Shown: in pieces, positions 3,536 to 36,551 of the stretch
Numbering within the stretch: position 1 is the first letter of the stretch
How the letters are laid out: each line of letters begins with the position of its first letter
DNA from: a virus
DNA length: 36,551 nt
Virus record (IMG/VR): IMGVR_UViG_3300023313_000018
Span: 1-36,551 of that record
Reading direction: 5' to 3' (one strand)
Made by a program: the position numbers and the translations under genes
Notes under the pieces: generated by a model
Databases searched by the model: none
Told to the model about the DNA's origin: nothing
Seen by the model: only the letters and a program-made list of their open reading frames with translations

Positions 3536-4801
3536 TTATTCTAATATAATCCCACGTGTCTTATATTTATCAGCTATTTTGTCTAAGTGCCAACACAAAT
3601 ATCCTAAAGCGTCACTAATATGTGTCAACATAGGGTCGGTTTTTTGGTCTAATTTATTATCTTTCCAACTTACACGTTCTAAGTCCCCAATCAGTTTCTT
3701 GCACTTAGGATTAATGATAATACGGTTAGACGTTAAAAGTCTATTAATGTTGTTAACCCTATCAGTAACAAATGGATTATAAACATAAGGTATCGTAAAG
3801 CCAGCCTCTTTAAGTATTTGGTGATCCGACTTGCCACTAGTCTTTCTATTCTTACCAGTACTATCGGGTATTACAGTTCCCTTGTAACCTCGTTTTTGTA
3901 GTTCATGCACCATTTTAAATGTGTCACTATTCTCGAGAAATAGCTCATCATGAATATAAAATGTTTCATTGAAATAGCTACACACTACAGCTGTCATAGG
4001 TTGGACGTTAAAATCCATTCCAACCCAAGTAGTTCCAGACATTGCAGGTGTGTCGCCAACATGTTTCTCCCGATCAAATGCGTAGTAGGCTTCACCATCA
4101 TTGCTGTCTAAAAACTCCCCCTCTAAAAACCTTTTACGTTCCGCTTCAGGCATTTTAGAAAGCATCTTTAAATAGTCTTCATCGATGTTATCTAAGTTAT
4201 CTTTGGGGTTCATCAACATAGAAGCGTATTCACCTGGGTCGTCTAATGGTTCTGACTCGATAGGGTCTAACTTCTTAATGAATAGCCAATATGACCAATG
4301 TTTCTTGTTAGGGGGGTTCTCATCATAGTATACTTTCTTAACAAGTTTATTCTTTTCAGCTAACCTTGTTAACGCTACTTGAACAGATGAATAGGATAAT
4401 TGGCTACACTCATTAAAGAATATAGTACTAAACTCTTTACCTAGTATCTTTTCAACACGTTTATCGTCGTCTAACCCTGCGATCCATATCTCGCTACCGT
4501 TAGGAAGTAGTACATAGTAATCAGATTTATTTAAATGGTAGATGAGATCGGGGAACGCTATCGCTAATACTTTTATCAGTGTATCAAGCCAGATAGATGT
4601 TTTAATACTATTGAACGTCTGTCTTAGCATAACGTGCCTAGACTTCACTTTACACGCTCTAATTATCATCGCAAATACTATGATAAAGGTCTTACCAGAT
4701 CGGGATCATGATCCCCCATAGAGCATGATGTGCTTAGCACTACTGCCCATGAGGGTAACCGCCTTATACTGAATCTTTGTTTTATTAAAGGTTTGAATCA
4801 T
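3536..4801 (-). CDS. terL: Terminase large subunit, interrupted by one in-frame TGA at 4708..4706 (codon 32)
   Basis: Track ORF 3536..4669 extends in the same frame upstream to ATG 4801 across a single TGA. The translation there is MIQTFNKTKIQYKAVTLMGSSAKHIMLYGGS*SRSGKTFIIVFAM. Supporting motifs are the P-loop RSGKT, a Walker B-like TIFFNEC, and nuclease-domain motifs VGMDFN, IPDSTG and HISDALGY. Confidence 0.8.
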
Positions 4802-5144
4802 GTTTGTCTATGTTTATTGCTATAGCTTTTACATCGATACTCTCTTCAACTTTATCCGCCCAATGTGCCATGTTCTTAAGTGCAAAGATTAACATAGTTC
4901 TATCGCCACCTAGTGCCATTTCGAGTGCTTTCTGTTGTAGCTTTCTTGCAACACCTTGTTGTCTTAACTTACCAAACTCCGAGTAAGTCATATTGTATTT
5001 TTCTTTTATTCTTTTTTCTAGTGTGTCTTCTGATACTTTAAAGTAATCAGATACGAATGCTTTAGTGAGTTTAAACTGCATTAATGCGTCTAAAGCTGCA
5101 TAGTCTATCTCTATTTTGTTACCGTGAACTTTAGCTTTTGTCAT
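4785..5144 (-). CDS. terS: Terminase small subunit (putative)
   Basis: 119-aa ORF directly upstream of terL and overlapping its start. It has a helix-turn-helix-like N-terminal half and a GGDRTMLIFALKNMAHW segment typical of small terminases. Confidence 0.65.
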   Translation of the reverse strand: MTKAKVHGNKIEIDYAALDALMQFKLTKAFVSDYFKVSEDTLEKRIKEKYNMTYSEFGKLRQQGVARKLQQKALEMALGGDRTMLIFALKNMAHWADKVEESIDVKAIAINIDKHDSNL

Positions 5145-6309
5145 TTTCCACCGCAGATTTTAGGTCATTATACAGTTCACCAGTAGATTCCAATGTAGCT
5201 TTCTTGCCTGTATAGTTTTGCCATCTGTTAACTATTACGTCTACAAATTTTACGTCAAACTCCATTACATAGCAGGGTATATCTTTTTTACATGCTGCTA
5301 TTAAAGTCGAACCAGAACCACCGAAGTAATCCGCTATTAGCTTTGGGTTAAGCTTAAATCTTTTACTTTCTAGAAACCAATCTATTAACTCAACGGGTTT
5401 TTGTGTTGGGTGTACTCTGTTTGCATTTGCAGATGATTTTTTAAACATTCTAACAACTGTTCTAAAATTCCCCCATGCTAGCTCACAATCTGTTTGGTCA
5501 CTCCCCCCATTGTTCTTATCCCAGACTATCCAATTTTCACTATCTGGTAATTCACTTGAGTAGTAATTTGCACCCCACCATATTTGCTTTGATGCGGGGT
5601 AGAGTCCTTGTATTAACTTGAAGCAATCCTTTGCAATATCAGGACTGTCGTCTCCTAATATATCCCCCCCATAATTTTTTGATAGTACCCCTGACTTACT
5701 TACAGCGTTCATGCCATAGGGTGGATCAGTATGTATAAAATCGGGTGTGAGTTTATTCATAAGCTTCTCAACGTCATCTATCATAGTGCTATCGCCACAC
5801 ATAACACGATGCTTCCCAAGTAACCAAACGTCACCCCGTTTAGTGATAGGGTTTTCAACTTCTGGAACTTCATCCTCATCAGTCTGAGGGTCTAATAATT
5901 CAACGTCTGGCAAGTTAAAATCCTCAATACCCAATAACTCAGTATCATCTATCTCTATTAATTTTAAATCCTCACCTAGCATCTCTAAGTCTAACTCAGC
6001 CCACCTGGCTATTTCGTTATCTGATATTAAATAGCTGTACTCTTGAGCTTCACTTTCAAAGTCTTGATATATTACAGGTAGTAACTCCATCCCTAACTTC
6101 TTAGCAGCCATTAATCTACCGTGGCCTACCACTAGAAACCCAGTCCGATTAGACACAATTAACGGATTTCTAAAACCTTGAAACTCTATTAATTTACATA
6201 ACCTAGTTATTTGAGCGTCTGAATGTTTGTTAGCATTTTTTGGATTTGGAACGATTTTATCTATTTCGACTAATTTTATTTCTCTAGATTTTACTATTGT
6301 CATATTCAT
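5131..6309 (-). CDS. ParB-like nuclease domain fused to a DNA N6-adenine/N4-cytosine methyltransferase
   Basis: The N-terminus carries ParB-N motifs (IVPNPKNANKH, VVGHGRLMAAKKLG). The C-terminal half has the catalytic motif IV TDPPYG followed by the AdoMet motif I FGGSGST, which is the beta-class order. Confidence 0.85.
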   Translation of the reverse strand: MNMTIVKSREIKLVEIDKIVPNPKNANKHSDAQITRLCKLIEFQGFRNPLIVSNRTGFLVVGHGRLMAAKKLGMELLPVIYQDFESEAQEYSYLISDNEIARWAELDLEMLGEDLKLIEIDDTELLGIEDFNLPDVELLDPQTDEDEVPEVENPITKRGDVWLLGKHRVMCGDSTMIDDVEKLMNKLTPDFIHTDPPYGMNAVSKSGVLSKNYGGDILGDDSPDIAKDCFKLIQGLYPASKQIWWGANYYSSELPDSENWIVWDKNNGGSDQTDCELAWGNFRTVVRMFKKSSANANRVHPTQKPVELIDWFLESKRFKLNPKLIADYFGGSGSTLIAACKKDIPCYVMEFDVKFVDVIVNRWQNYTGKKATLESTGELYNDLKSAVENDKS

Positions 6310-35982: not shown

Positions 35983-36551
35983 TTATGCAGTAACAACTGT
36001 AATTCTATTTGTACCCGTTGCAGTAAGTACACCACCATATAGGTGAGAAAGACTATAGTCATCTGATACTTTTAAAGCTTGTTCTTGTCTTAAAAGCATT
36101 GGATTGATTTGTCTAGCAAATGCAGCTGCCGATCTGTGAACAGAAATAAATCCACCTGCAGGTACAGCGATTGAACTAGATTCTACAATTGTAAATCCAT
36201 ATAATCTAGAAACAAATCCAGCCATGATAGGAGCTTCACTTCCATATTTATTTGCGTTGATAACATTATTGTTAGCAAGTAAGCCTTGAACGAATACAGG
36301 TGATGCAATTATGAATCTATCACTGCGTTGAACATTAGCTAAGTCCATTAATGCTTTACTATCAGCAATTGCAGCAAGCTCGTCACCTACGAAATCAATA
36401 GCTAATCCTTTAGTTGAGCCAGTCCCAGCGACCATAAGTCCAAACATAAAGTCATCAATCTCAGCTGCAAGTTCTTTAGAGCCATTTTTAACTGCCTCAG
36501 TGATTGCACTGATTTTAGACTGAATCTCAGCACGTTTAGAAACGGCCCAAG
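35983..36551 (-). CDS. Major capsid protein, 3' part (same gene as 1..386)
   Basis: The track ORF 35983..36447 frame stays open to the right edge of the window. The last 127 nt duplicate 1..127. The stop is TAA at 35983. Confidence 0.7.
   Translation of the reverse strand, partial: WAVSKRAEIQSKISAITEAVKNGSKELAAEIDDFMFGLMVAGTGSTKGLAIDFVGDELAAIADSKALMDLANVQRSDRFIIASPVFVQGLLANNNVINANKYGSEAPIMAGFVSRLYGFTIVESSSIAVPAGGFISVHRSAAAFARQINPMLLRQEQALKVSDDYSLSHLYGGVLTATGTNRITVVTA
36425..36551. repeat. Terminal direct repeat, copy 2 (identical to 1..127)
   Basis: Read directly. Confidence 0.95.

Follow-up and report, generated by a model that had tools for sequence, protein, structure and literature searches.

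Natural translational bypassing is known from few systems, namely gene 60 of phage T4 and its homologues, yeast mitochondria and, tentatively, the terminase of one Streptomyces phage. In gene 60, a bypassed insert of 50 nt forms a mobile cassette together with the endonuclease MobA, and the insert prevents cleavage (PMC7026636, PMC5009743). The large terminase gene of the Streptomyces phage Hau3 has two 10-nt gaps for which bypass has been proposed (PMC10732093; Smith et al., 2013, as cited there). Hops over a stop codon have been constructed synthetically in Escherichia coli (Weiss, Dunn, Atkins and Gesteland, 1987, as cited in PMC5009743 and bioRxiv 10.1101/2024.12.09.627546). With regard to natural in-frame stop hopping, a 2016 review by Atkins and colleagues stated that 'no occurences are known' (PMC5009743), and a 2024 preprint still cites synthetic, low-level stop-hops only (bioRxiv 10.1101/2024.12.09.627546). 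Here, we analysed the gene for the large terminase (TerL) in a viral DNA of 36,551 nucleotides, IMG/VR record IMGVR_UViG_3300023313_000018 (referred to as the window in its full length), in which the Walker A coding sequence is interrupted by an in-frame TGA. We propose that a programmed +6 hop of the ribosome restores the canonical Walker A motif and that the insert arose as immunity against an HNH endonuclease, a reading to which we assign a probability of roughly 70% and in which the hop is deduced from comparison of related genes. No report of this terminase feature was found in the literature searched.

The terL gene of the window is located on the minus strand and starts with an ATG at 4801-4799. 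Codon 31 is TCA (4711-4709), codon 32 is TGA (4708-4706) and codon 33 is TCC (4705-4703), which is followed by CGA TCT GGT AAG ACC (4702-4688), including the Gly-Lys-Thr codons of Walker A at 4696-4688, and by a frame that stays open up to the stop (3538-3536). No change of frame occurs across the TGA, the local minus-strand DNA being TAT GGG GGA TCA TGA TCC CGA TCT GGT AAG ACC, and the translation runs from MIQTFNKTKIQYKAVTLMGSSAKHIMLYGGS to the TGA stop and then continues with SRSGKTFIIVFAMII... The first-pass annotation, which had been made from the letters of the window, had reported this stop inside Walker A with one frame on either side, and this observation, with its coordinates, proved correct. 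The same holds for the claim that deletion of 6 nt yields a textbook P-loop: taking out six nucleotides results in GGSRSGKT, which is invariant in the relatives, so that the window has exactly six extra nucleotides compared to these. A 12-bp palindrome that had been highlighted at the site exists and is perfect (4714-4703); it is incidental, as it does not occur in the other 19 interrupted lineages described below. The elements of the site, with codons and G-run as read from the sequence, are the following:

4709-4801, minus strand: first open reading frame (ORF) of TerL, ORF1, from the ATG to the take-off serine codon, 31 codons (MIQTFNKTKIQYKAVTLMGSSAKHIMLYGGS), aligning with the N-termini of about 110 intact homologues
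4709-4711, minus strand: take-off codon TCA (Ser31)
4706-4708, minus strand: in-frame stop TGA, which would occupy the A site at take-off in the hop model
4703-4705, minus strand: TCC, the landing codon in the hop model, forming the 6-nt gap 4708-4703 together with the TGA
3536-4702, minus strand: ORF2 of TerL, from the resume codon CGA (4702-4700) to the stop (3538-3536), 388 codons without a further lesion
4713-4755, minus strand: predicted 5' hairpin with the 5' arm CCCUCAUGGGCA (4755-4744) and the 3' arm UGC-U-CUAUGGGGG (4725-4713), minimum free energy (MFE) -22.5 kcal/mol
4712-4717, minus strand: GGG GGA Gly-Gly codons, a G-run closing the hairpin 3' arm
4703-4714, no strand assigned: perfect 12-bp palindrome GGATCATGATCC, found in the window only

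The hop-corrected protein matches the Pfam families Terminase_3 (8e-21) and Terminase_6N (5e-15), and it is a large terminase of the PBSX / Terminase_3 family, consisting of an N-terminal ATPase with the Walker A motif and a C-terminal nuclease. TerL is single-copy in the window. An exact direct terminal repeat of 127 bp (1-127 and 36425-36551) marks the window as the complete genome of a phage, which is terminally redundant or was assembled as a circle.

In the proposed mechanism, TGA-TCC (4708-4703) would be an untranslated gap within the Walker A coding sequence of the sole large-terminase gene. The ribosome would translate 31 codons until peptidyl-tRNA(Ser) is positioned on UCA in the P site with UGA in the A site. 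The anticodon would then let go, the mRNA would slide by 6 nt, the same tRNA would re-pair with UCC, and decoding would resume at CGA. One serine would thereby be obtained from nine nucleotides, and the product would possess the canonical GGSRSGKT P-loop.

Counting the window, 20 lineages comprising at least 31 contigs are interrupted at the identical TerL codon boundary. The lineages were gathered by searching IMG/VR, JGI metagenomes and GTDB genomes for sequence patterns and by looking up homologues that had been called short. Early patterns anchored on TCATGA yielded mostly unrelated genes and under-sampled the family, and its extent became clear once any stop codon was permitted. The second lineage (lineage 2) was found via short-called homologues and is represented by eight independent ENA/Tara assemblies and one JGI contig, with a coverage of up to 128x. 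It reads TAT GGG GGG TCA TGA CG AGA AGT GGA AAA ACT, a 5-nt insert at the same boundary by which the frame is shifted, and all nine independent assemblies carry this insert. The ATG within the TCATGA of lineage 2 is in the frame of ORF2, which accounts for the 'MTRSGKTF...' proteins predicted by gene callers (P0020, P0021).

Inserts of 6 nt were found in 14 lineages (e.g., TCA TAA TCA CGC, TCG TAG TCT AGA or TCT TGA TCT AGG), inserts of 5 nt in three (TCA TGA CG AGA, TCC TGA CC AGA and TCC TAA CT AGA) and inserts of 7 nt in another three (TCT TGA A TCA AGA, TCT TGA C TCT CGT and TCC TGA C TCT AGA). The stop codon at the interruption is TGA in 11, TAG in five and TAA in four lineages. The codon before the stop is a TCN serine codon in 20/20 interrupted lineages, whereas intact genes use AGY in 34/151 cases. 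As the triplet that abuts the Arg codon on its 5' side, TCN was found in 15 lineages, ACN in three (all of them with 5-nt inserts), and CCT and TTT in one lineage each; C occupies the second position of this triplet in 19/20 lineages across the 5-, 6- and 7-nt classes. In the five lineages in which it is not TCN, this landing triplet agrees with the take-off codon at two of three positions. In all lineages, peptidyl-tRNA(Ser) would leave a UCN codon, the mRNA would move by 5, 6 or 7 nt, and the tRNA would re-pair with (U)CN beside the Arg codon.

According to the first-pass annotation, the recoding idea would fail if relatives had two sense codons at the site. A scan without bias, in which any 9 nt could stand between GGN-GGN and the Arg codon, identified no family member with two inserted sense codons, and the idea withstands this check. 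In two unbiased samples of relatives, 5 of about 155 loci were interrupted at this position, compared to two interruptions anywhere in the approximately 390 codons downstream of the P-loop. The recurrence at one codon boundary is far beyond chance. Elsewhere in the gene, a distant TerL (L347; IMGVR_UViG_3300020045_006067, ~2268-2310) has an in-frame TGA in the nuclease motif, TCC GGT TGA TCT GGT (DPSG*SGEED), which may represent a +9 hop from GGT to GGT and thus a second site of the same type of event. Another gene (L313; IMGVR_UViG_3300007171_000155, ~2046-2112) has an in-frame TAG in place of the Glu codon of the conserved NIDEDY motif (GAT TAG GAT); this looks like a plain nonsense substitution between identical Asp codons and not like an insertion.

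A search of a large protein collection with TerL returned 4387 homologues at E <= 1e-20, with identities of up to 81%. GGSRSGKT was invariant in all of the approximately 110 full-length proteins among the best 120 of the 4387 homologues and likewise in 151 intact loci, adding up to more than 260 homologues. In intact orthologues the flanks of the gap are contiguous and the gap itself is missing. Six homologues (P0025, P0064, P0085, P0088, P0109 and P0111) were called from M-L-(Y/F)-GGSRSGKT, without the usual ~23 N-terminal residues, which may be due to the start chosen by the gene caller or to an upstream lesion. Megablast of the locus against deposited phages gave no match, and cultured phages offer only distant TerL relatives with no more than 43% identity. 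In a scan of isolate genomes and metagenome-assembled genomes (MAGs), the best matches were 64-67% identical and belonged to Micavibrio and Pseudomonadota MAGs, others being distributed across many phyla. Since a hop alone leads to the invariant GGSRSGKT whether the insert is 5, 6 or 7 nt long, it is preferred over the other possibilities and is the mechanism best supported by the comparative evidence. The movement of peptidyl-tRNA(Ser) across UGA, from UCA to UCC, which had been put forward from the window, gained strong comparative support from the three different stops, the TCN flanks, the 5- and 7-nt variants, the lack of relatives with two sense codons, the selection on the genes and the hairpin, the latter two being described in the following.

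The interrupted TerL genes are functional and under purifying selection. ORF2 is intact, with 387-396 codons, in every interrupted gene that is not cut by a contig end. Two genes with the same TCA TAG TCA arrangement, L280 and L283, differ at about 125 synonymous positions (dS 0.87) with a dN/dS ratio of 0.06. In a clade of five interrupted genes with differing stop codons, dN/dS was 0.07-0.09 where dS could be estimated, dS being saturated elsewhere. At least six haplotypes occur among the nine assemblies of lineage 2, and L177, which was found by the DNA pattern and is hence unbiased, differs from L001 of the same lineage by six synonymous and no non-synonymous changes. Interrupted and intact genes are intermingled in a neighbour-joining tree, which implies at least 13 state changes, with intact neighbours as near as 6-8% amino-acid distance.

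The 5' hairpin (4755-4713) is the most distinctive signal at the site and had been missed by the first-pass annotation. In the window its 3' arm is formed by the Met-Leu-Tyr-Gly-Gly codons and ends 1 nt short of the take-off codon. In the interrupted lineages, a hairpin of 10-15 bp is predicted for the 63-66 nt up to the take-off codon. Its 3' arm covers the codons for (Met/Cys)-Leu-(Tyr/Phe)-Gly-Gly, with 0-4 nt left between this arm and the take-off codon. An equivalent predicted hairpin is present in 20/20 interrupted lineages and mostly missing in intact relatives. The 5' arms do not occupy homologous alignment columns, which is why the structures were judged from z-scores, pairing probabilities and swaps of the arms rather than with RNAalifold. 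For the window, the z-score against dinucleotide shuffles was -2.1, the pairing probability of GGN-GGN was 0.91, and none of 17 chimeras with swapped arms folded as well as the native sequence. With dinucleotide shuffles, the median z was -1.9 for interrupted genes (n = 17) and -0.85 for 28 close intact relatives (p = 4e-5); with mononucleotide shuffles, the corresponding values were -2.4 (n = 19) and -0.4 for all 151 intact loci (p = 3e-9). A GGN-GGN pairing probability above 0.8 was reached in 17/19 interrupted, but only 9/28 close intact genes (p = 5e-5). The mean difference between native and swapped-arm MFE was -6.25 kcal/mol for interrupted genes (19/20 lineages) and -0.33 kcal/mol for intact ones (p = 4e-6, compared to p = 0.67 for the intact control). 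The arms diverge between lineages yet stay complementary, as in GGGGG/CCCUC, GGUGGUU/AACUACU, GGAGGUU/AACUUCU and GGCGG/CCGUC. As predicted structures, the hairpin arms are therefore co-adapted and specific to interrupted genes. No enriched 3' structure (3' z of about 0) and no take-off stem-loop was found in the interrupted lineages, and the N-terminal TerL peptide is conserved only to the extent of normal TerL sequence. We propose that the 3' arm of the hairpin would be inside the ribosome at take-off and that the hairpin, by re-forming on exit, would pull the mRNA forward and block back-sliding, by analogy to the 5' stem-loop of T4 gene 60.

GGGGGN occurs in 8/19 interrupted lineages and in 7/151 intact loci (Fisher p = 2e-5, kinship ignored), and this G-run may contribute to the hairpin, take part in an anti-Shine-Dalgarno interaction, or do both. 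As a separate observation, 11/20 interrupted lineages (L199, L282, L285, L286, L287, L292, L297, L298, L321, L325 and L382) possess a perfect GGAGG (usually AAGGAGGC, Lys-Glu-Ala codons) next to the hairpin on its 5' side, at a distance of 35-75 nt from the take-off codon, as opposed to 7/150 intact loci (p = 6e-8) and 2/28 close intact relatives (p = 5e-4). The window has no GGAGG and possesses AAGGCGG in its place. This element is too far upstream for contact with the ribosome at take-off.

In the lineage L383, terL reads TCA TGA CCT AGA, and a gene for a 175-aa protein with NUMOD4 and HNH_3 domains is situated between the small-terminase gene and terL, with its stop overlapping the terL ATG. 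The overlap, ATGTCTGA, suggests translational coupling of endonuclease and TerL. A same-strand HNH homologue ending at the start of terL was found in 8/19 interrupted lineages, those with sufficient upstream sequence, compared to 4/143 intact loci (Fisher p = 3e-6). All eight HNH genes tested were of the NUMOD4+HNH_3 type, and a partial or more distant HNH copy was present upstream in three further interrupted lineages. The HNH proteins of L383, L282, L287, L382 and L321 end in a conserved ...KDI(N/S/K)R.(K/R)TW(K/S) directly before or overlapping the TerL start. Three HNH homologues are present in L287 (IMGVR_UViG_3300049783_000594): the first adjoins terL, the second follows some 1.1 kb upstream of it, and the third is encoded about 10 kb away on the opposite strand. 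L302, L303, L310 and L315 have an intact TerL with an upstream NUMOD4-HNH gene, adjoining in three of them, the endonucleases in question being more distantly related family members. A 5' patch of 60 nt that includes the 5' arm of the hairpin is common to L383, lineage 2 and the window with 87-92% identity, the TerL proteins being 75-77% identical. Such a shared patch is what co-conversion of flanking sequence would produce. The pattern is clear only for these three, and a mobile 5' patch as a general rule was rejected, since in intact genes, too, variability is higher in the N-terminal region than in the body of the gene.

From the close parallel to T4, where the gene 60 insert and MobA form a cassette, we infer that the terminase mini-insert breaks the target of the endonuclease. 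A NUMOD4-HNH homing endonuclease would have its target in the best-conserved stretch of the gene; the gap would interrupt this target and shield the genome that carries the gap, while bypassing would keep the essential TerL functional despite the gap. The window would represent an orphan resistant allele, in which gap and hairpin were retained and the endonuclease gene is missing. By this analogy, immunity is the likely function of the insert, and endonuclease immunity is a more likely purpose than regulation. That insert and NUMOD4-HNH gene together form a mobile cassette which has repeatedly invaded the Walker A coding sequence of phage terminases is a more tentative proposition, for which we consider the odds to be slightly below even.

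Several points weigh against the combination of stop-hop and immunity. With respect to the hop, the landing match in the 5-nt class, L383 and L292 comprises two positions only. The base following the stop is U in the 6-nt class, which is a strong termination context in E. coli, and the hop would have to be efficient enough to yield sufficient TerL. RNAalifold identified no single consensus structure across the interrupted lineages, the hairpins are predictions, and all association statistics ignore kinship among the lineages. The lineage of the window consists of one contig, the nearest relative of which is intact. With respect to immunity, the adjacency of the HNH gene is marginal when compared to close intact relatives only (4/27, p = 0.049), 11/19 interrupted lineages have no adjoining HNH gene and four intact genes have one. 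Among the ORFs of the window, no homologue of the L383 HNH protein was detected (phmmer, E <= 1e-3), and here the small-terminase-like ORF abuts terL. Finally, synthetic stop-hops without stimulators are described as low-level only where the 2024 preprint refers to them (bioRxiv 10.1101/2024.12.09.627546).

Among the alternatives, the one that survives best accepts the hop and assigns it a regulatory purpose, by which it would set the TerL dosage or tie packaging to the translation state of the host, e.g., to the availability of release factors, with no link to an endonuclease. The window and ten other interrupted lineages lack an adjoining HNH gene, the hairpin shows selection for bypass efficiency, and a regulatory role has been proposed for the terminase gaps of Hau3 (PMC10732093). 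A dosage device, however, could sit anywhere, yet 20/20 insertions are at one boundary, where the DNA of the gene is conserved best, and both the HNH association (p = 3e-6) and the patchy, non-monophyletic distribution with its at least 13 state changes better fit a mobile or immunity element. A regulatory purpose therefore appears unlikely, though it deserves to be taken seriously. The suggestion of a 'new regulatory device' in the first-pass annotation found no direct support; the HNH association rather points to an immunity insertion rescued by bypassing.

It is less probable still that the stop is decoded, either by near-cognate readthrough in the 6-nt class or by -1 and +1 frameshifting in the 5- and 7-nt classes, so that the P-loop would contain one or two extra residues (GGS-x-S-RSGKT). 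In the window, the reading frame is maintained across the stop, and UGA is generally the leakiest stop codon. A +1 shift in the 7-nt class would give GGS-(E/D)-S-RSGKT, and a -1 shift in lineage 2 GGS-MT-RSGKT. However, the 5- and 7-nt inserts change the frame, so that plain readthrough cannot serve these classes, and no slippery sequences accompany them; an enriched 3' structure is lacking in the interrupted genes altogether. The three different stops in use would lead to different inserted amino acids, whereas the family tolerates no sense-codon insertion at this position and GGSRSGKT is invariant in more than 260 homologues. Decoding of the stop would also leave unexplained why TCN occurs on both flanks and why the structure is 5' instead of 3'.

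That the TerL gene of the window is simply broken, as a recent defective variant, part of a decaying prophage or an assembly error, is very improbable. The contig is a singleton with an intact nearest relative, and no exact-protein record was found for its own protein P0001, nor for P0020 of lineage 2. Nevertheless, the architecture is shared by 19 other lineages, which come from independent samples and assemblers, with coverage of up to 128x and under purifying selection, so that the earlier concern about a dead variant or an assembly error can largely be set aside. The co-adapted hairpin of the window is not expected from a random lesion; ORF2 is intact over 388 codons, and the genome is complete without a second TerL.

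An equally small probability is given to a removal of the extra bases before translation, by hairpin-guided excision or editing of the RNA or through DNA heterogeneity in the population. This would lead to the same canonical P-loop as the hop, and a conserved hairpin does abut the site, but no bacterial or phage mechanism is known that cuts 5-7 nt from an mRNA. Excision would require neither a stop as the first inserted triplet nor a matching landing triplet, both of which are nearly universal, and the insert is present in all nine independent assemblies of lineage 2.

Reassignment or suppression of the stop, for which an in-frame TGA is a classic sign in the case of genetic code 4, genetic code 25 or selenocysteine and which might also be due to a phage suppressor tRNA, is practically dismissed, being already refuted by the TAA and TAG variants and by those that change the frame. 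The window is densely filled by long standard-code ORFs, with no other in-frame TGA problem among them. TGA terminates 5/35 long ORFs, the window and 12 interrupted contigs contain no tRNA gene (SECIS elements were not searched for), and TerL is single, by which global recoding and a redundant gene copy are excluded.

Three further candidates were rejected. A split TerL produced by termination and reinitiation would be feasible only in lineage 2, where the ATG overlaps the TGA; in the window there is no in-frame start before Met45, which is beyond Walker A. Slippage on the G-run fails, since one added G fixes lineage 2 but breaks the window. A transposon or restriction-site footprint (GATC-AT-GATC, BamHI/BspHI), the first of which had been raised in the initial annotation as a footprint-like insertion, involves sequences that are peculiar to the window contig.

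Around terL, the window shows the following neighbouring gene:

4785-5144, minus strand: small-terminase-like ORF of 119 aa, its stop overlapping the TerL start, its C-terminus resembling the GP3_package protein of L383

Neither this ORF nor the 509-aa ORF downstream of terL obtained an annotation in PHROGs. Two genes upstream of terL, at 5131-6309 on the minus strand, a 392-aa fusion of ParB_N and an N6/N4 DNA methyltransferase is encoded, which is found at the same position in L009, the closest intact relative. The ATG within the TCATGA starts a tiny ORF in the -1 frame, ATG ATC CCG ATC TGG TAA (4709-4692, minus strand); such an ORF is also seen in L014/L149, where it reads ATG ATC TAG in L149.

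The terminase site most closely resembles T4 gene 60 and mobA (PMC7026636; PMC5009743; bioRxiv 10.1101/2022.08.31.505936). In both cases, the stop follows right after the take-off codon and a matching landing codon lies beside the resume codon, the gap is missing in orthologues, and an essential phage gene is located beside a free-standing homing endonuclease against which the insert is thought to be protective. The differences are considerable. The gap has 5-7 instead of 50 nt and leaves no room for a take-off stem-loop within it, the tRNA would be Ser (UCN) instead of Gly (GGA), and the gene encodes a terminase instead of a topoisomerase subunit. The endonuclease is of the NUMOD4-HNH_3 type, there is no sequence homology, and the endonuclease gene is missing from the window.

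The arrangement is also that of the stop-hops of Weiss et al. (1987), the title of which lists +5 and +6 shifts, two of the three terminase classes. As cited in the later literature, those constructs were artificial, low-level and without stimulators, whereas the terminase site is natural, conserved, under selection and equipped with a dedicated predicted hairpin. In the Hau3 terminase, short frame-disrupting inserts likewise occur at highly conserved junctions and are missing in relatives, extra residues have been argued to be intolerable, and a 5' stem-loop and a Shine-Dalgarno-like element have been proposed as stimulators (PMC10732093). There, however, the A-site codon is the rare sense codon UUA, the gaps measure 10 nt and were found in 3/100 genes, the proposed purpose is sensing of the host bldA tRNA, no link to an endonuclease is reported, and the terminase belongs to a different family (PMC10732093). 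The mitochondrial 'byps' of Magnusiomyces capitatus, as cited in PMC5009743 and PMC7026636, share the principle of many short, mobile inserts in coding sequences that are corrected in translation, but they are described there as gaps of 27-55 nt with an unused codon in the A site at 81 sites of the mitochondrial genome, independent of context. In the +1 frameshift of prfB (release factor 2), UGA in the A site is the slow step as well and a G-rich Shine-Dalgarno-like element lies just 5'; prfB, however, moves by one base to an overlapping codon (CUU UGA C), while the terminase would move by 5-7 nt to a non-overlapping codon, at any stop and, in the window, without a change of frame.

If our reading is correct, the interrupted terminases would be the first natural family of short stop-hops, and the approximately 20 independent natural variants of a minimal 5-7 nt bypass site, differing in stop, gap length, landing codon and hairpin, would constitute a ready mutational series from which to learn how take-off and landing work. 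Automated gene calling cuts such essential genes short or in two, as with terL of the window, and thereby systematically conceals sites of this kind in viral metagenomes. Provided that the connection with the HNH endonuclease is real, a target-breaking mini-insert combined with bypassing could enable selfish nucleases to colonise the best-conserved motifs of essential genes. Should the cassette reading be true as well, T4 mobA/gene 60 would no longer be a one-off but an example of a general strategy, in which a selfish nuclease shields the genome it resides in by a tiny insert that the ribosome is programmed to ignore.

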